Of a stretch of DNA of 12,009 bases, positions 1 to 12,009 are shown in pieces (the stretch's first letter is position 1; each line of letters begins with the position of its first letter). Source of the stretch: a virus. The stretch lies in the UHGV virus genome UHGV-0151214. One strand, written 5' to 3'. A model generated the notes under the pieces. That model was not told where the DNA came from. It was given only the letters and a program-made list of their open reading frames with translations, and searched no databases. Made by a program: the position numbers and the translations under genes.

Positions 1-1488
1 GACCCTTATGCGCAAGCTGGAGAAACAATTGGCGGGTATTTAGTTCCAGGAGTTGGAACGGCAGGAAGCATGGCTATAGGATCACTGGCAGAAGCCGCAA
101 ACCAGAAAGGCGATTTCGCGCAAAATGCAGCCATAAACGCCGGAGTTAACCTTGCCGCTCAGGGTGTTCTTTCCGCAGCAGCAAAGGGAATAGGGCGTGG
201 AATAACGGCTATAAAAGGCGATATCGCGCCAGAAGTAGCGAAAAAAATTGCCACCTCAGAATCGATGGGCGTGACACCTATGACATCTGATGTTATCCAG
301 CCGAAAAATGCTTTCACTCGCGGTCTTACTCAGGATGCCGAGGGGGCTTTGCTCGGGACAGGCTCAAAGCGAGCGGAGCAATATGCAACGCGTAGTAAGT
401 TGGTAAGTAATTATTTTGACCGTTTTGGTGAGTACAACCCGGATGATGTGGTGAAATCTCTGACCACCACGTTAAGGGGACGGAAGGATGCCGCTGGCGC
501 TGTTATCAATGACGTCACCAATAAAATGGGTAATGCCGCAGTTGATACCACAAATACCATGAATGCTCTGAATACAGCGATCGCAAGACAGGAACGGCTT
601 GGGACGTCTGCCAATCAAAGCCTGCTTACATCCTTGCGTAACCTACGTGAAGAATTAGCAAACCCTGCAACTGATTTGGATGTTACGTTTGATCTCTTGC
701 GTCAGCACAGAACAGCATTTAGATCTAATGTTCAGGGAGATGCTATGGTCTTCCCCAACCAGGCAAAAGCAGCTACCAATATGGTAGAGAATGCAATGTC
801 AAAAGACCTTCGTAACGCAGTTGCTAAAAACCTCGGTGCATCAGACGCAGCAAAATACCTTAAAGCAAATTCCGATTATGCAAACGTTTATAATAAGGTG
901 CTTAATAAAAACATTGCTAACAAACTCAACAAGGCAAGCAGTGAAGCCAGTCCTGAACTTATAAATACCGTTGTATTAAGCAGAAAACCATCTGACGTGA
1001 AACGAATCTGGAGCGCACTGGATGATAAAGGGAAAGATGCTATGCGTGCAGCTTACGTCAGCAAAATAGCGGAAAAGGCCGGTGACTCTCCAGCCAAGTT
1101 CATCACTGAAGTTAATAAGCTGAAATCTCAGTCAGGCGGTGAAATTTACAACACTATTTTTTCTGGAAAGCACATGAAAGAACTTGATGCTCTTCATGAA
1201 GTTCTACAGCAAACAGCAAGGTCAGACACCGCAAATGTAGTAACTCAGACGGGGCAATCGCAAGCCAACAGGATAAGGACGATTGGCGCAACTGCGACTC
1301 TTGGCGTATCAATGGGGCTTGAGGCTGGTTTCGGTGCAATGATGCGCTTGTATGAATCCAAAGCAGCAAGGAATGCTCTCTTACGCTTGGCAAACACCAA
1401 AGCAGGAACACCAGCCTATGAAAGAGCGCTAAATAATGCTGCGAATGCCATCAGACCGCTGTTTGCTACTGAGGCAACACAGCAGTGA
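1..1488 (+). CDS. DNA ejection (injection) protein, P22 gp16-like, 5'-partial; the reading frame is open from base 1 so the true start is upstream of the window
   Basis: Frame 1 has no stop from position 1 to TGA at 1486-1488 (at least 495 codons in window). The product is Ala/Asn/Lys-rich and low-complexity, typical of P22-type ejection proteins. It sits immediately upstream of an mnt/arc/ant region and tailspike, where P22 has gene 16. Assignment is by composition and synteny only. Confidence 0.55.
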
Positions 1489-1505
1489 CTAAATGCCATG
1501 GATGG

Positions 1506-1955
1506 CTATTTTTTAGTGTAATAATCATCAAAATCGCAAGAAACAGATATCACAAAACCTGAAGTCATAGAAAAAGACAGGGTTTCACATGCCTTTCCGG
1601 CTTGATGGTATGCATTGATGCCACCGTATACGGATTCTCTTGATGAAAACAATGATTTTTCACCGTTTTTTTCTACAAGAATATGCCCATCTGAATCATT
1701 AATAAACCAAACAGAAATAGAGGAGCTTTCGCCAAGGAATGTTCTGTTGAATACCATGGGTGATTTACCCTTGACAACATTTTCTGCGCGCATAATCAGC
1801 TCAGCATTTTTTTTGCTATTTTTTTGTTCTGTATAGATTTTGTCTGCCACAAAATAAACAATGGCAATGGCTAACAAAGATAGGGAAATCAGCAATGCCT
1901 TTTTAATCAATTTTTTTGCATCCCTGTAAATCTCAACTGATAATTTTTCACTCAC
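1506..1955 (-). CDS. Hypothetical membrane-anchored protein (one N-terminal TM helix, about 110-aa C-terminal domain); candidate superinfection-exclusion protein by position (SieA-like locus)
   Basis: Minus-strand ORF with likely GTG start at 1953-1955, preceded by a perfect AAGGAGG Shine-Dalgarno (plus 1961-1967) at 5-nt spacing. Hydrophobic segment ALLISLSLLAIAIVYFVA follows a Lys-rich N-terminus. The longer 221-aa version in the ORF track would overlap the divergent gene and lacks an RBS. It occupies the slot between gene 16 and mnt where P22 carries sieA. Confidence 0.55.
   Translation of the reverse strand: MSEKLSVEIYRDAKKLIKKALLISLSLLAIAIVYFVADKIYTEQKNSKKNAELIMRAENVVKGKSPMVFNRTFLGESSSISVWFINDSDGHILVEKNGEKSLFSSRESVYGGINAYHQAGKACETLSFSMTSGFVISVSCDFDDYYTKK
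1916..1944 (+). promoter_or_regulatory. Candidate sigma70 promoter for the 1986..2351 gene (TTGCAT, 17-bp spacer, GATAAT)
   Basis: TTGCAT at 1916-1921, a 17-bp spacer, GATAAT at 1939-1944, about 40 nt upstream of ATG 1986. It overlaps the 5' end of the divergent minus-strand gene. Motif match only. Confidence 0.3.
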
Positions 1956-1985
1956 ACCAACCTCCTTAGTTTTGCGCAGGATACC

Positions 1986-2351
1986 ATGAAAAAAGTTAAC
2001 ATTGGAAACGTACCAAAGATGCTCGTTCCGCTCTTTGAGAGCGGTACAATTGTGTTTTGTAGAGACTTTCCAGAATGGCAACGCCTGCATCAAAAACTTG
2101 GCGTTGACGTGCATGACTCGGACGCCAACGGAGCGTCTCATACAATGAGTAGCGAGAATGGTGTTTTGCATGTGATAGGCGTGTTCAATGGCAAACTATC
2201 TACTATTGCCCATGAGTGCGCTCACATGGCATTCGATATCTGCTCAAGGGTAGGTGTTGATGTTGAACCAGGAAGAGCCAACGAGACTTACTGCTACTTA
2301 ATGAGCAGGCTTGTTGAGTTCTGCGAGCGACATATCAAAAAGCCGGAGTGA
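1986..2351 (+). CDS. Small (121 aa) hypothetical protein with an HExxH motif (TIAHECAHMAF); possible minimal zincin-like metallopeptidase fold
   Basis: ATG at 1986 with AGGA 4-5 nt upstream; clean 121-codon ORF. The HExxH sits in a predicted helical context with Glu residues 14-20 aa downstream as possible third ligand. No family recognised by eye. Confidence 0.6.
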   Translation: MKKVNIGNVPKMLVPLFESGTIVFCRDFPEWQRLHQKLGVDVHDSDANGASHTMSSENGVLHVIGVFNGKLSTIAHECAHMAFDICSRVGVDVEPGRANETYCYLMSRLVEFCERHIKKPE

Positions 2352-2410
2352 ACCGGCTTGATTATTACTTTTTGCTGTCTGGAGTTCGCTTATCCAATAC
2401 CCAGCCATGA

Positions 2411-2647
2411 CCTGGCTTTTTAGCAACTGCAGATCGCACAATCAATGTTCCATTCCACGGAACAAATCTCTTTTTGGTCAGCATTAACAATGAACCTTAC
2501 GTTCCTATGAAACCCGTTGTAGAAGGCATGGGTATGGTTTGGGCTGCTCAATTTGTTAAATTAAAACAGAGAGTTGTCAAAGGTATTTCGGAAATCGAAA
2601 TACCTTCTGCTGGCGGCGCAGGCTGCACCAAAAAAGAAACCAATTAA
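2411..2647 (+). pseudogene. Remnant of an antirepressor (Ant-like) N-terminal domain; no ATG start at the homologous N-terminus
   Basis: Frame open from stop TGA (2408-2410) to TAA (2645-2647). Translation TINVPFHGTNLFLVSINNEPYVPMKPVVEGMGMVWAAQFVKLKQ aligns with residues about 11-55 of the intact Ant encoded at 3960..4862 ([45 protein letters not shown]). Similarity ends after KLKQ and the frame terminates about 25 codons later. Confidence 0.55.
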
Positions 2648-2690
2648 TATATTTTTCATTTTGATTCCAAATAGTTATAGGATGAAAGTT

Positions 2691-2876
2691 ATGACCATAG
2701 AAGAACGCCTGAACAACATTGAGTTGAATCAAACCCTGCTTGACCAGCGACTTTCAGATCTTGAGCTTAAAGATCTAGATGCGCAAATATTAGAAGCAGA
2801 AGCCAAGCTCTCCAGCTTAAACCACCGTAAGAAGCAAATCCGCAATAGAATTACTCAGGGACGCGGAAGCCGTTGA
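2691..2876 (+). CDS. Small hypothetical coiled-coil protein (61 aa; alternative start ATG 2682)
   Basis: ATG at 2691 with AGGA (2679-2682) 8 nt upstream. Product MTIEERLNNIELNQTLLDQRLSDLELKDLDAQILEAEAKL... has heptad-like Leu spacing and a basic C-terminus. The TTG-initiated 100-aa version in the track overlaps the ant remnant and is less likely. Confidence 0.4.
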   Translation: MTIEERLNNIELNQTLLDQRLSDLELKDLDAQILEAEAKLSSLNHRKKQIRNRITQGRGSR

Positions 2877-2885
2877 AATCCTAGT

Positions 2886-3203
2886 CTATTTTTTCTCAGA
2901 GCTCATATTGTAATAGGTGGTATAAATAGAGATTGATTTCTGACATGCTTCAAGAAATTGCTGCGGAGTCATCCCAAGCCTTGCTTGCTCTGTAGTAAGG
3001 AATCTCTGTAAGAATTCATTCCCACCTGGCATGTTTGTAGATTCTTGGAATATTGCCATTTGTTTGATTGCACCACACATACCAGCCATTTTCGAAGCTA
3101 TCATGAGGCCTTGTATTTCATCAAAACTGCTATCGTCTGATTTTGTTTCTGCGTTAGCTATGCTCGAGAGACACAGGAGCAATAGGATAGCGATGCGTTT
3201 CAT
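2886..3203 (-). CDS. Small secreted (periplasmic) protein, 105 aa, with cleavable signal peptide and two Cys in the mature part; co-transcribed and translationally coupled with mnt
   Basis: Minus-strand ATG (3203-3201) overlaps the mnt stop (3202-3200) as ATGA. N-terminus MKRIAILLLLCLSSIANA-ETK is a classic Sec signal peptide with an AxA cleavage site. Two Cys in the mature part could form a periplasmic disulfide. Confidence 0.6.
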   Translation of the reverse strand: MKRIAILLLLCLSSIANAETKSDDSSFDEIQGLMIASKMAGMCGAIKQMAIFQESTNMPGGNEFLQRFLTTEQARLGMTPQQFLEACQKSISIYTTYYNMSSEKK

Positions 3204-3451
3204 TTTTCACCGTTGCCATGCATACATTTTAACTTCTCAACCTCATGCTCAAGCTCTATCAACCGCGATGCTATAGTTGCAATATCTAGTGCTTGAATAT
3301 GTTTATTTTTTTCAGTCCATGCCTCAAGTGCTGCTACCATCTCAGCATTTAATGAACGAGAATTAGCCTCAGCCAGCTCAATAAGACGTTCCTTTATCTC
3401 TACAGGAAGCCTCAGATTCACTTGAGGGTTTTTGTACTTACGATCAGACAT
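3200..3451 (-). CDS. mnt: Mnt-like ribbon-helix-helix repressor (83 aa)
   Basis: NLRLPVEIKERLIELAEANSRSLNAEMVAAL matches the P22 Mnt N-terminal RHH region (NFRMPMEVREKLKFRAEANGRSMNSELLQIV, from memory). Same length as P22 Mnt (83 aa) and divergent from the arc-ant operon as in P22 immI. AGGA SD 8 nt upstream on the minus strand. Confidence 0.85.
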   Translation of the reverse strand: MSDRKYKNPQVNLRLPVEIKERLIELAEANSRSLNAEMVAALEAWTEKNKHIQALDIATIASRLIELEHEVEKLKCMHGNGEK

Positions 3452-3488
3452 CGGCGCATCCTGAATAATTATTTACCACAGGATATGT

Positions 3489-3537
3489 AGGTATCTATTG
3501 ACTATCAATGCGTACCTAAATACTATGTATGCGTACC
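3489..3537. promoter_or_regulatory. Divergent promoter/operator region between mnt and arc: candidate rightward promoter (TTGACT, 17-bp spacer, TACTAT), an overlapping 29-bp imperfect dyad, and two 9-bp direct repeats
   Basis: -35 TTGACT at 3498-3503, a 17-bp spacer, -10 TACTAT at 3521-3526, about 30 nt upstream of arc ATG 3557. Dyad AGGTATCTATTGACTATCAATGCGTACCT (3489-3517) matches its reverse complement at 20 of 29 positions and is centred on the -35. ATGCGTACC occurs at 3508-3516 and 3529-3537 (21-bp period). Confidence 0.45.
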
Positions 3538-3556
3538 ACATACAGCGGAGGATGCA

Positions 3557-3697
3557 ATGAAGGTAAAAACACTGCGTATGCCAGAGAAGTTAGAAAAAAT
3601 CCTTGAAGAGAAAGCAAAGGAAGAGTGTCGCTCATTTAGCGCAGAAGTAATTAAACGGGTGTTGGACAGCCTGAAAAGAGAGGGGATAACAGTATGA
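3557..3697 (+). CDS. arc: Arc-like ribbon-helix-helix repressor (46 aa)
   Basis: [46 protein letters not shown] aligns with P22 Arc (…RWPREVLDLVRKVAEENGRSVNSEIYQRVMESFKKEG, from memory). GGAGGA SD upstream of ATG 3557. Below the ORF-track size cut-off, found by manual translation. Confidence 0.8.
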   Translation: MKVKTLRMPEKLEKILEEKAKEECRSFSAEVIKRVLDSLKREGITV

Positions 3698-3897
3698 GTA
3701 AAGAATGTTGTTTCTGCGGCATTAGCGAATCAGACGCTGATCAAACATACATTTACTCTAAAGAAACAGGTCGGATGCTGTGTAGTGACTGCGTGTTGGA
3801 CATCATAAGATACAAGCATCTTGGATGTTCTGCCAGCATTAGCAATATAGGTGAAGTATACGAAGGGAAAGATATAACTGATAGAGCAGAAAGTTGA
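3694..3897 (+). CDS. Hypothetical small Cys-rich protein (67 aa; possible zinc-ribbon-like), translationally coupled to arc
   Basis: ATG 3694 overlaps the arc stop (3695-3697) as ATGA. Cys at positions 5, 6, 8, 30, 33 and 45 (CCFC … CSDC … C). It lies between arc and ant where P22, as remembered, has a short intercistronic region. Coding status uncertain. Confidence 0.4.
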
Positions 3898-3959
3898 AGC
3901 CCCAACTGCGGGAACAGTCAGGGCTTCGGTTGTCAGTAAATCCGTGGAGAAAAACCAAC

Positions 3960-4862
3960 ATGAATAGTATAGCAATTTTAGAAGCAGTGAACACCTCTTA
4001 CGTACCATTCAACGGTCAGCAAATTATCACCGCCATGGCTGCCGGAGTTGCATATGTTGCGATGAAGCCAATCGTTGAAAACCTTGGAATGAGCTGGTCA
4101 ACGCAGCAAACAAAACTCATGAAGCAGATTAGCAAATTCAACTGTGTTCATATGAACATGGTTGCCGCTGATGGGAAGCTTCGTAAGTTACTCTGCCTTC
4201 CTTTGAAGAAGTTAAATGGATGGCTGTTCAGCATCAACCCTGAGAAAGTTCGTGCTGACATCCGCGATAAACTGATTCAGTACCAGGAAGAATGCTTTAC
4301 TGTGCTGCATGACTACTGGACAAAGGGAAAGGCAGAAAATGCACGTAAGAAAACATCTGTTGATGACAGGACTCCGCTTCGTGATGCTGTAAATATGCTG
4401 GTCAGCAAAAAGCATCTAATGTACCCAGAAGCTTATGCAATGATTCATCAGCGTTTCAATGTGGAAAGTATTGAAGAGCTTGATGCATCTCAGATACCGC
4501 AAGCCGTAGAGTACATCCACAGGGTAGTGCTTGAAGGTGAGTTCATCGGCAAACAAGAAGAGTTACCAGCGCCGAAACTGGATATTAACTTCCCGATTTC
4601 ATGGTTTGCTGAAAATGCACCTTACGCCATTATCAGGCAGCAATGCGGTGATACTGTTGCTCTTGACCGCAGCGCACTCGTTGAATGCAGTCCGGCGTAT
4701 AAACTAATCGATATTCTGACAAAAGCGGGGTATGACGTTTCAGCAGTAAGAGCCGAGCTAAAAGCACTTCGCCATTTAATGGCTGAGCAAAGCTGGGCAC
4801 TTAAAGAGATAGCTTCATTCGCAGCGATACGTGATAGAGCGTGCCACTCAATTAAACTTTAA
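3960..4862 (+). CDS. ant: Antirepressor Ant (300 aa), P22 Ant-like
   Basis: Downstream of arc in the same orientation. ATG 3960 preceded by GGAG; 300 aa, the same length as P22 Ant. Its N-terminal domain is duplicated as a remnant at 2411..2647. The track's upstream start at 3894 overlaps the preceding ORF and lacks an SD. Confidence 0.8.
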
Positions 4863-4902
4863 CTACCTGCACGAAAAGTGTAGGTCAATAACCAACGCAA
4901 CG

Positions 4903-4927
4903 ACCCAGCTTCGGCTGGGTTTTTTTT
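4903..4927 (+). terminator. Rho-independent terminator downstream of ant
   Basis: Stem ACCCAGC / GCTGGGT with loop TTCG, followed by a T8 tract (4920-4927). Confidence 0.7.
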
Positions 4928-4985
4928 ATGCCCAAAATTCACCGTAGCCATGCTGCGGCCATTCCTTGTATCTGGAGCAAATTAA

Positions 4986-7928
4986 ATGACAGACATTACA
5001 GCCAATGTTGTAGTGAGTATGCCATCGCAACTCTTCACTATGGCACGTTCTTTTAAAGCCGTAGCCAATGGAAAAATTTATATCGGTAAAATTGACACTG
5101 ACCCGGTAAATCCTGAAAACCAGATTCAGGTTTGTGTAGAGAACGAAGACGGTTCTCACGTTCCTGTTTCGCAACCAATCATTATTAACGCTGCTGGTTA
5201 TCCGGTATACAACGGACAGATTGCCAAGTTTGTAACCGTGCAAGGCCATTCTATGGCTGTTTACGATGCTTATGGGGCGCAGCAGTTCTATTTTCCTAAT
5301 GTGCTGAAGTATGATCCTGATCAGTTACGGCAGCAATTAGAAGACCCAGATGGAGCGAATAAATACCCAAAACTTCAGATAGCAAGATGGAGAGACAGTT
5401 ATGATGTAAGAGGTTGGGGGGCTATTGGTGATGGTGTTCATGATGATACATCAGCTCTATCAGAATTACTTTCTGTTGCAACAGGTGGTGAAAAGATAGA
5501 TGGGCGAGGGCTTACTTTTAAAGTATCAACTCTTCCAGATGTCAGTCGATTTAAAAATGCTCGTTTTTTATTTGAGAGAATACCGGGTCAGCCTCTTTTT
5601 TATGCTTCTGAAGATTTTATCCAGGGAGAGTTATTTAAAATTACAGATACACCGTGGTACAACGCCTGGACGCAGGATAAAACGTTTGTATATGACAATG
5701 TCATCTATGCGCCTTTTATGGCTGGAGACCGCCATGGTGTAAATAACCTCCATGTTGCATGGGTTCGCTCAGGAGATGACGGGAAGACCTGGACAACGCC
5801 GGAATGGCTTACAGATTTACATGAAAACTATCCCACAGTTAACTATCACTGCATGAGTATGGGGGTTGTCAGAAATCGCCTTTTTGCTGTAATTGAGACG
5901 CGGACCGTGAGCGGAAATAAACTGCAGGTTGCAGAGTTGTGGGATCGCCCAATGAGTCGCAGCCTTCGCGTTTATGGTGGTATAACGAAAGCAGCAAATC
6001 AGCAAGTCGCTTATATTCGCATTACTGATCACGGATTATTTGCTGGTGATTTTGTCAACTTCTCAAACTCTGGTGTTACAGGTGTTACCGGGAATATGAC
6101 GGTGACTACTGTTATTGATAAAAATACCTTTACAGTTACGACGCAAAATACCCAGGATGTGGATCAGAATAACGAGGGTAGATACTGGAGTTTTGGTACA
6201 TCATTTCACTCGTCACCATGGAGAAAAACCAGTCTTGGAACTATTCCTTCTTTTGTTGACGGAAGCACTCCTGTTACTGAGATTCACAGTTTTGCGACGA
6301 TTAGCGATAACAGTTTTGCTGTTGGCTACCATAATGGTGATATTGGTCCACGCGAGCTTGGGATACTCTATTTCTCTGATGCTTTCGGTTCTCCTGGTAG
6401 CTTTGTTCGCAGACGCATACCTGTAGAATATGAGGCGAATGCATCTGAGCCATGTGTAAAATATTATGATGGCATTCTGTATCTGACGACCAGGGGGACA
6501 TTAAGTACTCAACCCGGTAGTTCATTGCACAGAAGCTCTGATTTAGGTACATCATGGAATTCTCTTCGCTTCCCAAATAATGTTCATCACTCAAACCTTC
6601 CTTTTGCCAAAGTTGGCGATGAGCTGATTATTTTTGGCAGTGAGCGCGCATTTGGTGAGTGGGAAGGAGGAGAACCTGATAACCGTTATGCAGGAAATTA
6701 TCCAAGAACATTTATGACCAGAGTTAACGTCAATGGGTGGAGTCTGGATAATGTAGAGTGGGTTAATGTTACTGATCAGATTTATCAGGGCGGAATAGTT
6801 AACTCTGCGGTTGGTGTTGGTTCAGTTTGTATCAAAGACAACTGGCTGTACTACATTTTCGGTGGGGAAGACTTTCTAAACCCATGGAGCATAGGGGATA
6901 ACAACAGAAAATATCCTTATGTTCACGATGGTCACCCGGCTGATTTGTATTGTTTCAGGGTGAAAATTAAACAGGAAGAATTTGTTTCAAGGGATTTTGT
7001 CTACGGAGCCACTCCTAACAGAACGCTTCCTACTTTTATGTCGACGTCAGGCGTGAGGACGGTTCCTGTACCCGTTGATTTCACAGATGATGTTGCCGTC
7101 CAGTCACTGACTGTCCATGCAGGTACATCAGGACAAGTTCGCGCGGAAGTCAAACTTGAGGGTAATTACGCCATTATTGCGAAGAAAGTACCGTCTGATG
7201 ATGTTACCGCTCAGAGATTAATCGTTAGCGGCGGTGAAACAACGTCTTCAGCAGATGGTGCAATGATAACGTTGCATGGTTCCGGAAGCAGTACTCCACG
7301 TCGCGCGGTATATAACGCACTCGAACATCTTTTTGAGAACGGAGATGTTAAACCTTATCTTGATAATGTAAATGCTCTTGGTGGTCCGGGAAACAGGTTC
7401 TCGACAGTTTATCTTGGCTCCAATCCTGTGGTTACCAGTGACGGAACATTAAAGACAGAGCCGGTCTCTCCTGACGAAGCATTGCTGGATGCCTGGGGTG
7501 ACGTCAGGTATATCGCTTATAAATGGCTGAACGCTGTCGCTATAAAGGGGGAAGAAGGGGCGAGGATACATCATGGTGTAATCGCGCAGCAACTTCGTGA
7601 TGTTCTTATTTCTCACGGACTCATGGAAGAAGAAAGCACAACATGCCGCTATGCCTTTCTTTGCTATGACGATTATCCCGCAGTATATGATGACGTCATT
7701 ACTGGCCAAAGGGAAATGCCGCTGACTGATAATGACGGGAGCATCATTGTTGATGAGGATGATAATCCAGTGATGGTAATGGAAGACATCATTGAGCGCG
7801 TTGAAATAACGCCAGCAGGATCTAGATGGGGGGTCAGACCTGATCTCTTATTCTATATCGAGGCAGCATGGCAGCGCAGAGAAATGGATAAGATAAAAGA
7901 GCGGGTTCAGTCTCTGGAAGAACGTTAA
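4986..7928 (+). CDS. Tailspike protein (980 aa): P22-type head-binding N-terminal domain, sialidase-like catalytic region with two Asp-boxes (probable endosialidase, GH58-like), and C-terminal self-cleaving chaperone domain (peptidase S74-like)
   Basis: N-terminal about 110 aa ([11 protein letters not shown]…[22 protein letters not shown]…VLKYDPDQ) closely matches the P22 gp9 head-binding domain. Asp-boxes SGDDGKTW (aa 262-269, nt 5769-5792) and SSDLGTSW (aa 517-524, nt 6534-6557). [15 protein letters not shown] motif is also present. The C-terminus has S-DGTLK (Ser818 at nt 7437-7439) and [11 protein letters not shown], resembling the autoproteolytic chaperone domain of endosialidases and tail fibres. 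Confidence 0.85.
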
Positions 7929-7954
7929 AAAAAAGCCCGCAAAATATTGCGGGC
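7927..7954. terminator. Hairpin terminator at the tailspike 3' end; the U-tract is on the minus-strand side, so it is stronger for leftward transcription
   Basis: A8 run (7927-7934), then stem GCCCGCAA (7935-7942), loop AATA, stem TTGCGGGC (7947-7954). On the minus strand this reads hairpin plus T8. On the plus strand the hairpin is followed by ATCAAAAACGG. Confidence 0.5.
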
Positions 7955-8234
7955 ATCAAAAACGGAGTTGGTGAAAAGTTATCTTTGAATTCTATCATGA
8001 ATCAGTACGTATTTTAAATACATGTTCAGGTTTATTACACCATAGCATTATTAAATACAAAATTAAGTCTATGGTTCCTGTACAACTGCCCCCACTCTGC
8101 TGGCTCGTTCTGTAAAATCATTAGTACTTTTATTGAGATATATGATATGGAACAATAATGATTCATATATGGTTTACTATGCGGGTTTAGTCATCAATAA
8201 TTGACTGGCTTATAGATAGTAAACAGGAGAAAGT

Positions 8235-8639
8235 ATGTCTGCTCAAGTAACAAGTGAGCAATTAAATCAGTTGCTTAGTTTTGGTTCTCTTGCTGCAGTT
8301 ATTGCAGGTGTCCCTCCGGAGGTTGCTTTAGGGGCTTTGGCTGGGGCGGTAATTTTTGTTACCTCTGCAGTAGAGTACCCTATCCGTCGCCGGGTGCTCC
8401 TGTCGATGCTCAGCTTTCTTTGCGGCCTTCTCTTTTACAAACCAGCAGCATCAATTCTTATCGGCATAGCCAGCCTGATCCCTACCATCACGCAGGACTC
8501 TTTTGAAAAAGGGATTGTTTTCTCTGCAGGCGCATTCGTGTCAGCAATTGTCGCTGTGCGTATTGGTATATGGCTCTATCACCGTTCCGATAATCCACGC
8601 GAGTTAATTCCGGGGAGAAAAGACGATGGTAACGCATGA
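8235..8639 (+). CDS. Holin-like or antiholin-like membrane protein (134 aa, about 4 hydrophobic segments, charged C-terminal tail)
   Basis: ATG 8235 with AGGAG 7 nt upstream. Multiple TM-length hydrophobic stretches and a charged C-terminus ([19 protein letters not shown]). First gene of a cluster with a second holin-like gene, endolysin and spanins. Confidence 0.5.
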   Translation: MSAQVTSEQLNQLLSFGSLAAVIAGVPPEVALGALAGAVIFVTSAVEYPIRRRVLLSMLSFLCGLLFYKPAASILIGIASLIPTITQDSFEKGIVFSAGAFVSAIVAVRIGIWLYHRSDNPRELIPGRKDDGNA

Positions 8640-8934
8640 GTTTTTTTTGCTTATCACTAATGCAGTTATTTGCACTGGCATAGCAATTCGCGTTGTCACA
8701 TTCCGGCGTAACGGCTCTCAACATCGAAGGTGGGGAGGATGGCTTGCTTATTTCCTGATTGTTGCTGCGGCCAGTATTCCTGTTCGAGTCGCCTATGCAA
8801 TCTGGTTACGTACGCCAATGGCTGTGGATTTATCTGAGGTCATTATCAACGCTGTCATGCTGGCTGCGGTTATTAAAACGCGCGGTAACGTCGTTCAAAT
8901 TTTTAAAGTATCGAGGTCTAAACATGGAGATTAA
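8626..8934 (+). CDS. Putative holin (102 aa, 3 TM segments, basic C-terminal tail)
   Basis: Three hydrophobic segments and C-terminal [19 protein letters not shown]. Overlaps the preceding gene by 14 nt and the endolysin start by 11 nt. Confidence 0.6.
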
Positions 8935-9553
8935 ACAATTCCAGCGAGCTGCTGGTATCAGCGAGGCACTGGCCGCACGCTGGTTCTCGCATATAACTTC
9001 TGCGATGAAAGAGTTTGGTATCAGCAAAGCAGAAGATCAGGCAATGTTTATTGCTCAAGTCGGGCATGAGTCTGGGGGCTTCACCAGGTTGCAGGAGAAT
9101 TTCAACTACAGTGTCAGCGGACTGGCTAACTTCGTTCGGGCTGGGCGTCTCACTCAGGGGCAGGCTAATGCACTGGGGCGCCGTGCTGGTGAACCACCAT
9201 TGCCACTTGAGCGCCAGCGCGCGATCGCAAATCTGGTATACAGCAAACGCATGGGGAACAATGCCCCTGGTGATGGCTGGAATTACCGAGGGCGCGGACT
9301 TATCCAGATTACCGGTTTGAATAACTATCGTGATTGCGGAAACGGTCTGAAGGTTGACCTGCTGGAGAGCCCTGAACTGCTGGCGCAGGACGAATATGCG
9401 GCTCGTAGCGCGGCGTGGTTCTTCGCCAGCAAAGGATGCATGAAGTATACCGGCGATATTGCACGTGTAACTCTGATTATCAATGGTGGCCGGAACGGCA
9501 TCGACGACCGGCGAGCGCGGTACATCACTGCCAGTAAGGTGCTGGCGGTATGA
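8924..9553 (+). CDS. Endolysin, glycoside hydrolase family 19 (chitinase-like phage lysozyme), 209 aa
   Basis: GH19 signatures [12 protein letters not shown] (catalytic Glu in HES), a second Glu in LQENFNY, and [19 protein letters not shown] 8924 preceded by GAGG. The track's longer version from 8759 reads through the holin in a frame with no lysozyme similarity. Confidence 0.85.
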
Positions 9554-10032
9554 TCTGGGCATTCGTAAAAGCATACTGGAAACAGTTTCTTATCGTGGCA
9601 GTGCTTGCTGTTCTGGTCATATCAGGAGTGGTTGCCTGGAATATACACGGCAGTCGCCAGTACGATGCCGGGTATGCTCAGGCGGAAGAAGACCGCAAAG
9701 CCGAAGAAGACAAAGTTCGTCAGTACTACGAACAGGAGAAAGTGACCAATGAACGTGAAGCTCAGCAGAGGATCGACCAGGCGCGCAATGATGCTCTTGA
9801 TGCTGCCGCTAGCGCTGGCCGGTTGCAGCAACAACTCTTTGCCATCCGTGAGCAGCTCAGGCAGTATAACGCCATTGTCGGCGCTGGGTCGTCAGCCGCA
9901 GACACCGGAGTTTTGCTTGCCGACGTGCTCAGCAAATCTCTCGAGAGAAACAGACAACTGGCAGAGTATGCTGACCGGGCAGCCGAAGCCGGAAGAGTCT
10001 GCGAAAAACAGTACGACACTTTGACCAGATAG
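9550..10032 (+). CDS. i-spanin (Rz-like inner-membrane spanin subunit), 160 aa
   Basis: ATGA overlap with the endolysin stop. N-terminal TM ([18 protein letters not shown]), a long charged coiled-coil periplasmic region, and a Cys near the C-terminus. Sits immediately after the endolysin and contains an embedded lipoprotein ORF. Confidence 0.75.
9788..10024 (+). CDS. o-spanin (Rz1-like outer-membrane lipoprotein), embedded in the +1 frame of the i-spanin gene
   Basis: [13 protein letters not shown] has a lipobox (LAGC) and a signal-peptidase II site. The mature part is about 58 aa, Ser/Pro-rich with additional Cys. It lies entirely within 9550..10032 in another frame. Start taken at ATG 9788; the track's 9749 start adds an unlikely N-terminal extension. 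Confidence 0.65.
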   Translation: MMLLMLPLALAGCSNNSLPSVSSSGSITPLSALGRQPQTPEFCLPTCSANLSRETDNWQSMLTGQPKPEESAKNSTTL

Positions 10033-10184
10033 CATGGCATTTTTCATGGTACTGATTTCCGGTGACGGTATATAAAACGGTACGGGAAAAATTGAGATTT
10101 GGAAAAATGTTATCACTCAATTGGTTATGGTTATCGTAAATAATTGAGTGGAATGATTTGACCCTGCACTATGAATGAACAAAA

Positions 10185-10210
10185 CCCTCTGTTACTACAG
10201 AGGGTTTTTT
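10185..10210. terminator. Bidirectional rho-independent terminator between the lysis cassette (+) and the convergent minus-strand operon
   Basis: Stem CCCTCTGT (10185-10192), loop TACT, stem ACAGAGGG (10197-10204), then T6 (10205-10210). Preceded by AAAA, so it is usable from both strands. Confidence 0.7.
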
Positions 10211-10248
10211 ATACTCACGAATCATAGGCTTGAAGTTACTGACATCGC

Positions 10249-10788
10249 TTAGTTAAACCAGCTGTCCGATTTGTTCTCTTCTGCTTTGCCCACGCTTTTC
10301 ATCAGATCTCGACCGCCCTCAGTCATATTCCTGTTTGCGTCAGCTTCAGATTGCACCACATCGGTTTGCGCAGCTTTGTGCTTCAGTTCCTGATCGATAA
10401 ATTCGTTTTCTCGCTTAACGCGGGCTTCTTCTTTCGCCAGCGCCAGTTTTTGTTTCTGAATCTCTAAGCTGCGTAGCTCATCTTCATAACTTTGATCGCG
10501 TTTTTTGTCCGCAGAGGCTTCGGCGTCCAGTTTATCCTGACGAGCTTTCTTATTTGCCGCTGCCGTTGCCGCTCTTTTGTTAGCGGCGGCCTGGGCGTTT
10601 GCGCGACGTTGCTTCTCTTGCTGGATTTCCCTGTTGCGCTCCGCGACCCATTCGTCATGCTGCCTTTGCTCTTCATTTTTACCTTGCTGTTCCGCTTCTG
10701 CGACAGCAGAGAGTTGATCCTGCAATGATGAGGCGATAGCCGGATAGCTTAAGGAGGCTAAGATGGCGCAAAGAAAAACTTTCTTCAT
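10249..10788 (-). CDS. Secreted Lys/Glu/Ala/Gln-rich (coiled-coil-like) periplasmic protein, 179 aa, with signal peptide
   Basis: Strong GGAGGAG SD upstream of the minus-strand ATG. N-terminus MKKVFLCAILASLSYPAIA-SS is a Sec signal peptide. The rest is highly charged and helical (…QQEKQRRANAQAAANKRAATAAANKKARQDKLDAEASADKKRD…). Lies 16 bp downstream of the lipoprotein gene on the same strand, so probably an operon. Confidence 0.6.
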   Translation of the reverse strand: MKKVFLCAILASLSYPAIASSLQDQLSAVAEAEQQGKNEEQRQHDEWVAERNREIQQEKQRRANAQAAANKRAATAAANKKARQDKLDAEASADKKRDQSYEDELRSLEIQKQKLALAKEEARVKRENEFIDQELKHKAAQTDVVQSEADANRNMTEGGRDLMKSVGKAEENKSDSWFN

Positions 10789-10803
10789 GACTCCTCCTGA
10801 TCA

Positions 10804-11322
10804 TTAGCTCTTTTCAGGACATTTGGTATTTGGCTGAATACGCGTTTCGTTATACGTCGTGGTAATAACAACGGCTAAACCTGTCGTAAACTGGCACTCT
10901 TTACCCACCTGGGTGGAGGTATACACTTTGGTGCCTTCCTTATACGTTAGAGAAACACCTTCCACTAAGGTTTTATCATTCACCATAGAACCCGCTGCCG
11001 CGCCAACAGCTCCGCCGCCAACTGCACCTGCCGTCGTTCCGGAATTGCTGCCAGACCCGACGTTGTGGCCAATAACACCGCCAGCGACTGCACCAATAAG
11101 CGCGCCGAAGGCTTGTGCGTTTCGTTTATTTTGGGAGTTGTCTACGGCAACTTTTGCGGGAAGAATGGAAATAATATTAACGGTTTTAGTTTCTTGTTTG
11201 GTATTCAGTTGATCGGTTTGATAAACATCGGCGGCATGATCATCAGCATTTGACTGGCATCCTGCCAGAGTGAATGACGCTAACATTGCCACAGGCAGAA
11301 GACATTTTTTAAATTTCATCAC
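10804..11322 (-). CDS. Outer-membrane lipoprotein with glycine-zipper region (SlyB/Pcp/YcfJ-like family), 172 aa
   Basis: Lipobox FTLAGC after a signal peptide. Gly-zipper segment GALIGAVAGGVIGHNVGSG…AGAVGGGAVGAAAG resembles the glycine-zipper motif of YcfJ/SlyB-type lipoproteins (recalled, not searched). AAGGA SD 7 nt upstream. The upstream region 11323-11510 is strongly AT-rich. Confidence 0.65.
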   Translation of the reverse strand: MMKFKKCLLPVAMLASFTLAGCQSNADDHAADVYQTDQLNTKQETKTVNIISILPAKVAVDNSQNKRNAQAFGALIGAVAGGVIGHNVGSGSNSGTTAGAVGGGAVGAAAGSMVNDKTLVEGVSLTYKEGTKVYTSTQVGKECQFTTGLAVVITTTYNETRIQPNTKCPEKS

Positions 11323-11632
11323 TATTCCTTGTTATACACATTACGAAAAATAAGACATTTAAGATCATCAAAAGAGGAAAGTAAATGTATTGCGTATAAA
11401 GGAATAGATTAAATTTATTAAAATTCATGTGGAAAATAATTTATAAAAATACATCATTAAAACATATGTATTAATTTTATATTTATTTCGCAGCCAAACA
11501 GGATAAACATCAGTCAGGACAAAGACGTAAAATTTAAGATGAAAGAATATCTGCCGCTTTGATAATCCCAAAGAGCAAAAGCATCCGACAGCGAGGTGCC
11601 GTTATGTTCTGTGAAAGTGGAGAAGGTAACCG

Positions 11633-11806
11633 CTAACGTTGTACCGGTGATTCGACGGAGAGTGTGGATTGCTGAGCTTCTTTTTTGCTCTGATGGTGCT
11701 GCCATGCACCGACGGACGAGTAGATAAAACGGCCAAAGAAGAAGATAAAGCTGATGAGCAGTACGATACGGGTCATGCGACTGTTAAATCGGTGTCGTTT
11801 TCGCAT
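11633..11806 (-). CDS. Possible small membrane protein (57 aa from ATG 11806; alternative start ATG 11776)
   Basis: Minus-strand ORF encoding MRKRHRFNSRMTRIVLLISFIFFFGRFIYSSVGAWQHHQ… with one clear TM segment. The track start is GTG with no convincing SD. Coding status uncertain. Confidence 0.2.
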   Translation of the reverse strand: MRKRHRFNSRMTRIVLLISFIFFFGRFIYSSVGAWQHHQSKKEAQQSTLSVESPVQR

Positions 11807-12009
11807 ACTGGTTGCCTGACTCACAAAAGGTTCCTTGATGTATGTCCCACGCTGTGGACGGTACTTACATTAAGGCACAACAGGACAAAATGGTCAATTC
11901 TTCGTTATGTAAAAAAGCGTCAGTGGATACATATTTTAATGTTATGGAAGTTAATTTAATTATTTACAATGATGATGTAATAATGATGAATTAACATGAT
12001 AAACGTAAT

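Follow-up and report, generated by a model that had tools for sequence, protein, structure and literature searches.

The two minus-strand genes that lie beyond the phage lysis genes in the 12,009-nucleotide stretch of DNA analyzed here (hereafter, the window) are the Escherichia coli chromosomal genes yfgH and yfgI, and they are host DNA, not phage cargo. Both are already known genes. By far the best explanation of the locus, which we hold with high confidence, is that it represents the chromosomal yfgH-yfgI operon of E. coli, made of host DNA and without functional link to the phage beside it. None of the results provided counter-evidence to the identification or to the host origin. At the loci examined, yfgI is strictly co-inherited with yfgH, on phage P7 and plasmids as well. 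This pattern offers a hypothesis that can be tested for the functionally uncharacterized YfgI and contributes to ongoing research on SlyB-type outer-membrane stress lipoproteins.

Prophage boundary and host origin of the gene pair

The features that define the junction between phage and host DNA, and the genes to the right of it, are as follows.

8235..10142, plus strand: right arm of the prophage, with two holins, a GH19 endolysin, a DUF2514 Rz-like spanin (Pfam), and 110 nt of attP arm
10143..10158, no strand: attR copy of the attachment core, ATTGAGTGGGAATGATT, from alignment of the window, ZX5 attP, and MT102 attB
10181..10208, no strand: bidirectional intrinsic-terminator hairpin with a 12-bp stem, the loop TACT, and U-tracts on both strands
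10249..10788, minus strand: yfgI, encoding a DUF5384 protein of 179 aa (Pfam PF17358; identity to WP_000755173.1)
10804..11322, minus strand: yfgH, encoding an outer-membrane lipoprotein of 172 aa (ORF; PF05433; match to SlyB 7OJF)
11633..11824, minus strand: yfgG (DUF2633, 63 aa; PF11119, 97.6 bits), the next host gene, outside the operon

A three-way alignment of attR, attP, and attB placed the prophage boundary at the attachment core, and all DNA to the right of this core is host DNA. The 17-bp core consists of the last 15 nt of guaA followed by TT and agrees with the core published for phage ZX5 (PMC9782041). The copy in the window, ATTGAGTGG(G)AATGATT, is 16 nt long, with one G of the GGG run missing. 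In the free phage ZX5, an integrase gene, not yfgI, is found across attP.

The corresponding empty site was examined in the prophage-free strain MT102, which has the gene order xseA-guaB-guaA-yfgI-yfgH-yfgG-pdeF and encodes YfgH and YfgI proteins that are 100% identical to those of the window. The yfgH-type gene thus stands at the orthologous position, between yfgG and yfgI and near guaA. The window proteins are also 100% identical to WP_001295476.1 (YfgH) and WP_000755173.1 (YfgI, as annotated in MT102 and GPEC1337). By megablast, the DNA from 10143 to 12009 was found in all 5426 complete E. coli genomes, and at least 80% of this query was covered in 5401 of them; the phage arm was present in only 499 of the 5426. 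The arrangement of the whole window was also sought in these genomes, and none covered more than 55% of positions 1-10300 in one place. Outside E. coli, the order guaA-yfgI-yfgH-yfgG-pdeF is kept in E. albertii, Citrobacter, two further Enterobacteriaceae, and S. bongori.

The preliminary description of this DNA had offered two options for the pair, prophage cargo or flanking host DNA. Synteny comparison found the genes at the same chromosomal position in prophage-free strains, where they occupy the interval between guaA and yfgG, and they are therefore flanking host DNA. The same conclusion follows from their place outside the attachment core and their presence at the empty site and in every complete genome searched, and the cargo option was abandoned.

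The yfgHI genes converge on the Rz-like gene (9550-10032, plus strand), and they had been described as sharing a terminator with the lysis cassette. The convergence was confirmed, and a strong hairpin (10181-10208) does lie between the two; however, this hairpin is the native terminator of the convergent genes guaA and yfgI and belongs to the host DNA right of the attachment core. Its sequence is identical in prophage-free MT102, and in this lysogen it stands 3' of the phage Rz-like gene. The predicted folding energy was -17.9 kcal/mol (z = -5.4), and 0 of 200 shuffled sequences were as stable. A simple consensus terminator scan did not pick up this hairpin, perhaps, we think, because extension of the stem consumes the T-run.

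Operon layout and the AT-rich upstream spacer

Three noncoding elements of the pair are considered here.

10789..10803, minus strand: 15-nt gap between yfgH and yfgI, in which the Shine-Dalgarno sequence AGGAGG (10798-10793) precedes the yfgI ATG by 4 nt
11357..11385, minus strand: candidate sigma-70 promoter of yfgHI, with -35 TTTACT (11385-11380), a 17-nt spacer, and -10 TTAAAT (11362-11357)
11323..11632, minus strand: AT-rich yfgG-yfgH spacer, 30% GC overall, ending at the yfgG stop codon (11632)

In two papers, the pair appears as the 'yfgHI' operon. The portrayal of the genes as an envelope-targeted two-gene unit was supported by the co-oriented minus-strand ORFs, the 15-nt gap with its AGGAGG sequence, and the lipobox and signal peptide of the respective products. 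The candidate promoter lies ~35-65 nt ahead of the start codon. It is the only strongly conserved stretch of the yfgG-yfgH spacer among E. coli, E. albertii, two further Enterobacteriaceae, Citrobacter, and S. bongori, and this pattern of conservation suggests that it serves as the yfgHI promoter. The block matches the consensus at 8 of 12 positions and for this reason was not listed by a consensus promoter scan. The numbers of promoter and terminator sites that such scans returned for the window were no higher than chance.

As previously indicated, the DNA immediately upstream of yfgH (~190 bp) is extremely AT-rich. The 188 nt from 11323 to 11510 have 21.8% GC, the lowest value in the window: of 11821 equally long segments, only 19 have 21.8% GC or less, and every one of them falls within this region. 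The yfgG-yfgH spacer of related genera has 29-34% GC, and its sequence is kept only near the promoter. A terminator-like hairpin 3' of yfgG (11601-11586) is weak, and the count of such hairpins equals the chance expectation. Searches of the AT-rich spacer and of both strands of the gene pair against Rfam gave no match at gathering thresholds, and a permissive search returned only a chance-level match to a eukaryotic lncRNA (E = 0.63).

This base composition had been taken as typical of H-NS-silenced, horizontally acquired genes, and yfgHI could accordingly be an acquired islet that is silenced by H-NS acting on its AT-rich promoter. We regard this explanation as unlikely. Besides the 21.8% GC of the upstream 188 nt, it can draw on the in vitro binding of H-NS reported for the adjoining yfgF/yfgG spacer (PMC3946193), on the clear movement of the module between lineages on a deeper timescale (small plasmids, P7, Commensalibacter, and Serratia), on an integrase gene ~2.3 kb downstream of the Serratia locus, and on the reported absence of the locus from S. 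Typhimurium and its presence in S. Typhi. However, the coding GC of yfgH and yfgI is ordinary (47.0% and 49.6%, respectively), and presence of the pair is not variable, being universal in E. coli and syntenic as far as S. bongori and Citrobacter; any acquisition must therefore be older than these genera. The part of the published table covered here (PMC3946193) gives no H-NS site for the yfgG-yfgH spacer. Finally, yfgH is induced by envelope damage and needed under stress (bioRxiv 10.64898/2025.12.22.696046), so it is not simply silent.

YfgH is a SlyB-like outer-membrane lipoprotein

YfgH had been likened to SlyB from its sequence, and the sequence and structure searches agreed with this assignment. 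The protein has the lipobox L19-A20-G21-C22, with Gln23 and not Asp at position +2, a configuration for outer-membrane sorting, and the lipobox cysteine is invariant in an alignment of 28 homologues. The glycine-zipper 2TM domain PF05433 was detected with 33.2 bits (cut-off, 24.2). Its two-helix hairpin spans approximately residues 62-111, with helices at 62-86 and 93-111 in the predicted model, and the glycines G72, G76, G80, G84, G98, G102, G106, and G110 are invariant in the homologue alignment. The C-terminal beta domain contains two more invariant cysteines, which probably form a disulfide. A phmmer search matched YfgH to SlyB over its full length (7OJF_A; E = 3.9e-10; residues 8-164 to 5-154). 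The YfgH monomer model is of low confidence (pLDDT 50.6) and was used solely to confirm the SlyB match; with Foldseek, SlyB 7OJF_A was its sole significant match (E = 5.1e-6, probability 1.00, TM 0.57 on target).

Experimental work on YfgH has been reported (bioRxiv 10.64898/2025.12.22.696046; PMC3219608). After export, the lipoprotein, a SlyB paralogue, receives its lipid on Cys22 and is targeted to the outer membrane (bioRxiv 10.64898/2025.12.22.696046; PMC3219608). According to the former study (bioRxiv 10.64898/2025.12.22.696046), fractionation places YfgH in the outer membrane, loss of yfgH results in sensitivity to SDS/EDTA and in leaky cells, and knockdown of lptD, bamA, or lpxC leads to more yfgH transcription. 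BamA, LptD, and porins co-purify with YfgH, and the deletion phenotype is suppressed by clsA mutations and complemented by yfgH by itself. Rings of YfgH are, as the authors state, so far AlphaFold3 models only.

YfgI is a predicted secreted protein of the DUF5384 family

YfgI matched Pfam family PF17358 with 208.2 bits (E = 7.5e-62; cut-off, 25) over profile positions 1-145 of 145. Together with the occurrence of this DNA in every complete E. coli genome, the match indicates that the ORFs are real genes and not chance. The N-terminus is a signal-peptide-like segment, MKKVFLCAILASLSYPAIA/SS, in which cleavage is predicted, by eye, at A-I-A/S after residue 19; the P7 homologue carries an annotated signal peptide. 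The mature protein comprises 16% Ala, 13% Glu, 11% Gln, and 11% Lys, and AlphaFold2 predicts one helix from residue 17 to 177 (mean pLDDT 87), a single long helix in a monomer model being a weak guide to the real oligomeric state. These properties are in line with the earlier view of a secreted, Lys/Glu/Ala/Gln-rich, helical protein. Alignments of the family revealed conservation of an N-terminal motif and of the C-terminal half (residues 95-179), between which lies a spacer helix that varies and has few hydrophobic residues. The C-terminal half ends in S-W-F-N in YfgI and in W-F-N/K across homologues.

No DNA-related domain was found in YfgI by Pfam or by the solved-structure search. Relatives of solved structure were sought and none was identified, the best hit being the low-complexity tail of a capsid protein (E = 0.61). 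The literature search found no papers on DUF5384 and nothing on the mechanism of YfgI or on a link between YfgI and YfgH. The sole published yfgI phenotype, which was read as a DNA-damage response, is that of a deletion mutant whose survival was 7% of wild type on nalidixic acid, 98% on kasugamycin, and 74% on ampicillin (PMC3536626). In some database entries, YfgI is called 'nalidixic acid resistance protein'.

yfgH and yfgI are inherited together

Homologues of YfgH and YfgI were encoded by adjacent, co-oriented genes in 21/21 loci examined, and the YfgH gene was directly upstream each time. Twelve of these loci came from a genome scan for YfgI homologues, and the others include searches starting from YfgH. 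The genome-scan loci include two from Pseudomonas, one from Cellvibrio, in which the genes overlap by 4 nt, and one from an alphaproteobacterial metagenome-assembled genome; the search from YfgH added pairs in Xenorhabdus, Serratia, Pantoea, and Commensalibacter. The pair was also present in S. bongori, on a small S. Cerro plasmid, in phage P7 (upf50.5/upf50.0), and on a 7.5-kb ColRNAI-type plasmid, and in one case of carriage on a small ColE1-type plasmid it lay beside a phosphoethanolamine transferase gene. Spacing between the two genes elsewhere was -4 to 37 nt, with one exception of 264 nt.

The flanking genes vary among the loci, so the yfgH-yfgI pair is a conserved unit. Adjacency this strict suggests, from gene order, that YfgI is a partner of YfgH, and the adjacency across 21 loci goes beyond the literature searched. 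A fusion of the two proteins was considered as well: the lone long DUF5384 protein (P0247, 409 aa) has an unrelated coiled-coil stalk as its fusion partner instead of YfgH, and was rejected as a Rosetta-stone protein.

A possible outer-membrane repair module

The authors of the YfgH preprint proposed a mechanism that we adopt as the most likely one. YfgH, like SlyB, would assemble into membrane rings by means of its glycine-zipper hairpin, and upon membrane damage these rings would enclose cardiolipin-rich patches and outer-membrane proteins. YfgI would be translated from the yfgH mRNA, 15 nt downstream, secreted to the periplasm, and act there with YfgH. It would most likely dock on the periplasmic face of YfgH assemblies and organize or tether them; the mature protein of ~160 residues is predicted to be a single helix of up to ~24 nm. 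The nalidixic acid sensitivity of yfgI mutants may thus stem from outer-membrane permeability instead of faulty DNA repair. Defects in the outer membrane ease the entry of hydrophobic quinolones, nalidixic acid among them.

We tentatively suggest, with confidence somewhat short of even, that YfgI is an obligate periplasmic partner of YfgH, that its helix organizes or tethers the YfgH rings, that its 'DNA-damage' phenotype reflects permeability, and that the two proteins constitute a mobile 'outer-membrane repair' module passed on as one unit in Gamma- and Alphaproteobacteria and carried, too, by P1/P7 phage-plasmids and small ColE1-type plasmids. YfgI is not mentioned in the main text of the YfgH preprint, where mass spectrometry of the ~17-kDa band from the YfgH pull-down named Slp and SlyB, not YfgI (bioRxiv 10.64898/2025.12.22.696046). 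Because yfgH alone complements the deletion, YfgH has no strict need of extra YfgI; chromosomal yfgI may still be expressed in such cells.

Alternatively, YfgI could act in the DNA-damage response apart from YfgH, with the adjacency representing an operon of convenience. This would fit the low survival of the deletion mutant on nalidixic acid relative to kasugamycin and ampicillin, and the database name given above. However, YfgI has a signal peptide and lacks a DNA-related domain, so direct action on DNA is implausible, and its gene remains next to that of YfgH in distantly related lineages and on mobile elements whose other neighbors are unrelated. In S. Typhi, sdiA regulates the orthologous yfgHI locus, and Salmonella tests detected no significant effect of sdiA on how sensitive the cells were to nalidixic acid or UV. 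We therefore judge an independent role of YfgI in DNA damage to be very unlikely.

Phage records and phage-borne homologues

There is next to no chance that yfgH and yfgI are prophage cargo (a 'moron') expressed from the lysogen to alter its envelope, an explanation that att mapping and the empty-site comparison ruled out. The genes do adjoin the phage lysis cassette, the GenBank and RefSeq records of phage TL-2011b list identical genes as phage genes, PHROGs has full-length families for both proteins, and phage P7 and P1-like plasmids carry homologous pairs. However, the attachment core separates the phage from the genes, the integrase gene takes their place beyond the ZX5 attP, and the genes keep their position in prophage-free strains. 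The TL-2011b record extends across yfgG and takes in a fragment of pdeF, and so reaches beyond the phage into host DNA. The P7 copies are 67% (YfgH) and 47.5% (YfgI) identical and are thus paralogous, not the source of the locus.

In the TL-2011b record, the YfgH homologue is mislabelled 'DNA methyltransferase', and the matching PHROG family has the same label. Automated readers that rely on homology to a 'phage protein' would be misled at yfgHI. The ambiguity is settled here: the pair is ordinary host DNA beside a prophage end and not lysogenic-conversion cargo.

Comparison with known systems

The locus corresponds to yfgHI of E. coli K-12, located between guaA and yfgG, with identical proteins, neighbors, spacing, and terminator. 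The genes themselves are no different, and the window differs in having a prophage 90 nt past the yfgI stop codon, at the att site in guaA. For this adjoining element, the closest likeness is to Uetakevirus vB_EcoP_ZX5, which shares the att core and shows 99.6% identity to the window in the lysis cassette and attP arm. Both vB_EcoP_ZX5 and TL-2011b are Uetakevirus (epsilon15-like) prophages that integrate at guaA, a likeness that concerns the adjoining element only. The left part of the window is closer to the P22-like phage CUS-3 than to Uetakevirus. This switch, across positions 5507-7899, may reflect a true hybrid of a P22-like phage and a Uetakevirus or an assembly joined at the endosialidase gene that the two share.

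The two genes also occur together, with unchanged order and orientation, in P7 (upf50.5/upf50.0) and P1-like phage-plasmids, where signal peptides are annotated. Unlike the pair in the window, the P7 copies are true mobile-element cargo, located between the immunity region and the late tail-tube operon.

TraT, a plasmid-encoded surface-exclusion and serum-resistance lipoprotein that forms decamers (9E2V and 9FS5), resembles YfgH in its outer-membrane location and its glycine-rich helical hairpin. TraT is larger than YfgH, and the similarity is weak and limited to the glycine-zipper and beta region (YfgH residues 57-162; E = 0.0019 against the PDB). YfgH was not accepted as a TraT member (PF05818, 28.1 bits; cut-off, 31). 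Neither YfgH nor YfgI matched a PADLOC defense model at E <= 0.01, and an anti-phage defense system was rejected on this basis. A role in phage exclusion or serum resistance, which had been raised for the pair, could draw only on the sub-threshold TraT similarity, and nothing links YfgH to either function.

Among known systems, YfgH also resembles SlyB, a PhoPQ-regulated outer-membrane lipoprotein whose cryo-EM structures (7OJF and 7OJG) are of SlyB rings around BamA and lipids. SlyB and YfgH have in common the lipobox, an N-terminal strand, the glycine-zipper two-helix hairpin, and a C-terminal beta domain, and both function in outer-membrane stress protection. The two proteins are only ~26% identical, and YfgH, unlike SlyB, has two extra invariant cysteines in its C-terminal domain. 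Suppressors differ as well, mapping to clsA for yfgH and to the Mla pathway for slyB (bioRxiv 10.64898/2025.12.22.696046), and YfgH is paired with a DUF5384 gene in each of the 21 loci.

Two E. coli genes beside the prophage end

The two genes are yfgH and yfgI of E. coli, already known, and are ordinary host DNA beside the end of the prophage. They lie on the minus strand 15 nt apart, with AGGAGG 4 nt 5' of the second ATG as read from the sequence.

Features of the window
10804-11322, minus strand: yfgH ORF, 172 aa
10249-10788, minus strand: yfgI ORF, 179 aa
11633-11824, minus strand: yfgG, the next ORF, Pfam DUF2633/YfgG
11385-11357, minus strand: conserved promoter-like block, -35 TTTACT, 17 nt, -10 TTAAAT
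11842-11994, plus strand: 50-aa ORF in the AT-rich yfgG/pdeF spacer, RefSeq hypothetical protein WP_000017552.1
3892-3959, minus strand: sar antisense RNA of the P22 immI region, Rfam RF00262, 95.6 bits

The N-terminus of YfgH, MMKFKKCLLPVAMLASFTLAGCQS, carries a lipobox with Cys22 and Gln at +2, and the protein matches the PF05433 glycine-zipper 2TM domain of Pfam (33.2 bits against a cut-off of 24.2). YfgI has a signal-peptide-like segment at its N-terminus (...SYPAIA/SS), the mature protein contains 16% Ala, 13% Glu, 11% Gln, and 11% Lys, and the 179-aa protein matches Pfam DUF5384 at 208 bits. The 188 nt 5' of yfgH (11323-11510) have a GC content of 21.8%, the window minimum. These observations confirm the preliminary description of two co-oriented genes, for a glycine-zipper lipoprotein and a signal-peptide protein rich in Lys, Glu, Ala, and Gln, downstream of an AT-rich stretch.

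Window positions 10040-12009 were compared by megablast with all complete RefSeq E. coli genomes (n = 5426). All 5426 matched, 5401 of them over at least 80% of the query, and the features annotated beneath the matches were yfgI (DUF5384), yfgH (glycine zipper 2TM or outer membrane lipoprotein), and yfgG. For the majority of genomes, matching sequence began at query position 104 (window 10143), with guaA as the adjoining gene. The prophage-free strain MT102 has the order xseA-guaB-guaA-yfgI-yfgH-yfgG-pdeF-ppx-ppk1, and its YfgI, YfgH, and YfgG are 100% identical to those of the window. A few of the matched genomes carry IS200 or IS3 inserted in the yfgI-yfgG region. Strain E105 retains only the yfgG end of this region, and yfgHI are therefore dispensable in at least some strains.

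The prophage end, attachment core, and terminator

When the window, the attP region of Uetakevirus vB_EcoP_ZX5, and the empty site of MT102 were aligned, the window tracked the phage to 10142, followed by a core shared by all three, ATTGAGTGGGAATGATT, and by host sequence beyond. Exactly the same 17-bp core was reported for attP and attB of ZX5, at the guaA 3' end (PMC9782041). The attR copy (10143-10158) has one G fewer than this core (GG for GGG), which could impair excision or be a homopolymer sequencing error. Of the two origins proposed for the genes, prophage cargo is ruled out, since they follow the core, occupy the same position in MT102 without the prophage, and occur in 5426/5426 genomes, whereas the 110-nt phage arm was found in 499. 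Their position in MT102 is the very result that the preliminary description had named as refuting the cargo origin. The att alignment and the MT102 empty site instead establish flanking host DNA.

The yfgI/yfgH pair is convergent with the phage Rz-like gene (9550-10032), and a hairpin between the Rz-like gene and yfgI (10181-10208; -17.9 kcal/mol, z = -5.4) has U-tracts on both strands. It lies on the host side of the core and is identical in MT102, and is therefore the native guaA/yfgI terminator and not phage-owned. The terminator first described as common to the lysis cassette and the operon is this host element. The ZX5 attP region (about 7150-7250 of ZX5 locus L004) has its own hairpin, AACCCTCTGTTTTTACAGAGGGTTTTT, nearly the same as the host terminator; after integration, guaA at attL would thus keep a terminator on its 3' side. 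Strain GPEC1337 (loci L003/L002) has two tandem copies of a guaA-integrated Uetakevirus-like prophage, in the order lysis cassette, integrase, ... second lysis cassette, yfgI.

The adjoining prophage is a mosaic. Positions 1-7899, which include an endosialidase tailspike with a P22 head-binding domain (Pfam), are ~98% identical to the P22-like K1 phages CUS-3 and phiv205-1, and positions 5507-10142 are 99.6% identical to ZX5; the overlap (5507-7899) holds the endosialidase gene common to both phage types. Mnt/Arc-like and Ant-like ORFs lie near the sar RNA. None of the 5426 genomes combines the P22-like and ZX5 parts at one site, and no single site covers over 55% of window 1-10300. Either a real hybrid arose via the endosialidase gene, or the assembly was joined across the 2.4 kb that the two phage types share.

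Age of the locus and its promoter

S. bongori retains the order ppk-ppx-pdeF-yfgG-yfgH-yfgI-guaA-guaB-xseA, as do E. albertii, one Citrobacter, and two further Enterobacteriaceae, and the coding GC of the two genes is 47.0% and 49.6%. The window copy is therefore ancestral to that clade, contrary to the proposal that the genes were horizontally acquired. The yfgG-yfgH spacer is AT-rich (29-34% GC) in all compared relatives, and its sequence is kept only in one proximal block (11385-11357), probably the yfgH promoter. A genomic-SELEX table enters in vitro H-NS binding at the neighboring yfgF/yfgG spacer and none for the yfgG-yfgH spacer (PMC3946193). The yfgG/pdeF spacer with this reported binding also houses the 50-aa ORF (PMC3946193).

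Mobile copies and a database artifact

Taken as a whole, the yfgH/yfgI family is mobile, and divergent pairs occur in Escherichia sp. E1V33, beside fli flagellar genes and a putative integrase-fragment ORF (judged by eye); on a 3.9-kb S. Cerro plasmid (L017), adjoining a carbonic anhydrase gene; and in Commensalibacter and Serratia, the latter with an integrase gene ~2.3 kb downstream. On 7.5-kb ColRNAI-type mobilizable plasmids, the neighbor is a divergent phosphoethanolamine transferase, CptA-like and scoring far below family cut-offs; in E. coli plasmid pRHBSTW-00573_2 (L026, 7.5 kb), pair and transferase span 3593-6967. The pair of phage P7 (L025, 2976-4040), upf50.5/upf50.0, is 67% and 47.5% identical to YfgH and YfgI and is flanked on one side by the c4-icd-ant immunity region and on the other by the late tail-tube operon. 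The copy of ~47.5% identity seen in P1 and P7 recurs in about 186 records of large plasmids (80-157 kb), which for this reason are presumed to be P1-like. The P7/P1-like pair is a candidate lysogenic-conversion module. In S. Typhi the pair is regulated by SdiA, and S. Typhimurium was reported to lack it (PMC11619404).

The locus also illustrates a database artifact, the entry of host genes in a phage record. The phage TL-2011b record (NC_019445.1; L027, 1-3425) extends ~3.6 kb beyond attR into host DNA and counts yfgI, yfgH, yfgG, the 50-aa ORF, and part of pdeF among the phage features. Both this record and the P7 RefSeq record mislabel the YfgH homolog 'DNA methyltransferase'. Both proteins have full-length matches among the PHROG families, in 1277 and 1094, and the first of these bears the same wrong label.

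YfgI as a possible partner of YfgH

YfgI belongs to a small family, with 278 clusters (50% identity, E <= 1e-3) among 1.84 billion representatives, and no relative with a solved structure was found. AlphaFold2 (59 sequences) predicted a single helix over residues 17-177 (pLDDT 87), in keeping with the helical second product first described; fully extended, at 0.15 nm per residue, it would measure ~24 nm. By its conservation, YfgI falls into three parts.

Parts of YfgI
Residues 20-40: conserved N-terminal motif
Residues 41-94: variable spacer, 7% hydrophobic, differing in length between E. coli alleles
Residues 95-179: conserved C-terminal half, ending S-W-F-N

E. coli alleles range from 170 to 179 aa through in-frame indels in an AAANK[RK]A repeat (residues 65-76, window 10558-10600). 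In a common variant, P0056 (169 aa; 724 contigs; named for O145:H28), the N-terminus is replaced and the signal peptide is absent; in that lineage yfgI may be non-functional.

In 21/21 loci examined, a DUF5384 gene lies directly 3' of a yfgH-type gene, with gaps of -4 to 37 nt except in P. rhizoryzae (L013; 264 nt), and flanking genes are unrelated from locus to locus. From this adjacency amid unrelated flanks, we infer that YfgI is a periplasmic partner of YfgH. A literature search on DUF5384 gave no papers, none of the papers searched deals with how YfgI works, and yfgI is named nowhere in the main text of the YfgH preprint (10.64898/2025.12.22.696046). The sole published yfgI phenotype is 7% mutant survival on nalidixic acid, which that study interpreted as a DNA-damage response (PMC3536626). 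A secreted YfgI is unlikely to act on DNA. Nalidixic acid is a hydrophobic quinolone, and, from general knowledge, altered permeability to it would be the simpler reading. The value left in the locus is this YfgH-YfgI partnership hypothesis.

YfgH and SlyB

A genetic interaction between lptD and yfgH was reported, and vancomycin causes blebs in yfgH mutants (PMC3219608). A 2025 preprint located YfgH at the outer membrane and described SDS/EDTA sensitivity, NPN leakage, yfgH induction on lptD, bamA, or lpxC knock-down, copurification of BamA, LptD, and porins with YfgH, and clsA suppression (10.64898/2025.12.22.696046). It also proposed SlyB-like YfgH rings enclosing cardiolipin (10.64898/2025.12.22.696046). 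We adopt this model, in which YfgH would surround cardiolipin, ring formation being modeled only.

YfgH aligned over its full length with SlyB (PDB 7OJF; E = 3.9e-10). Its AlphaFold2 model, though of low confidence (pLDDT 50.6), runs as SlyB does from a strand through two helices to a beta domain, and SlyB was its sole significant Foldseek match (E = 5e-6). Alignment and Foldseek search both support the reading of the first product as SlyB-like. In addition to what it has in common with SlyB, the aligned YfgH subfamily keeps two cysteines of the C-terminal domain invariant.
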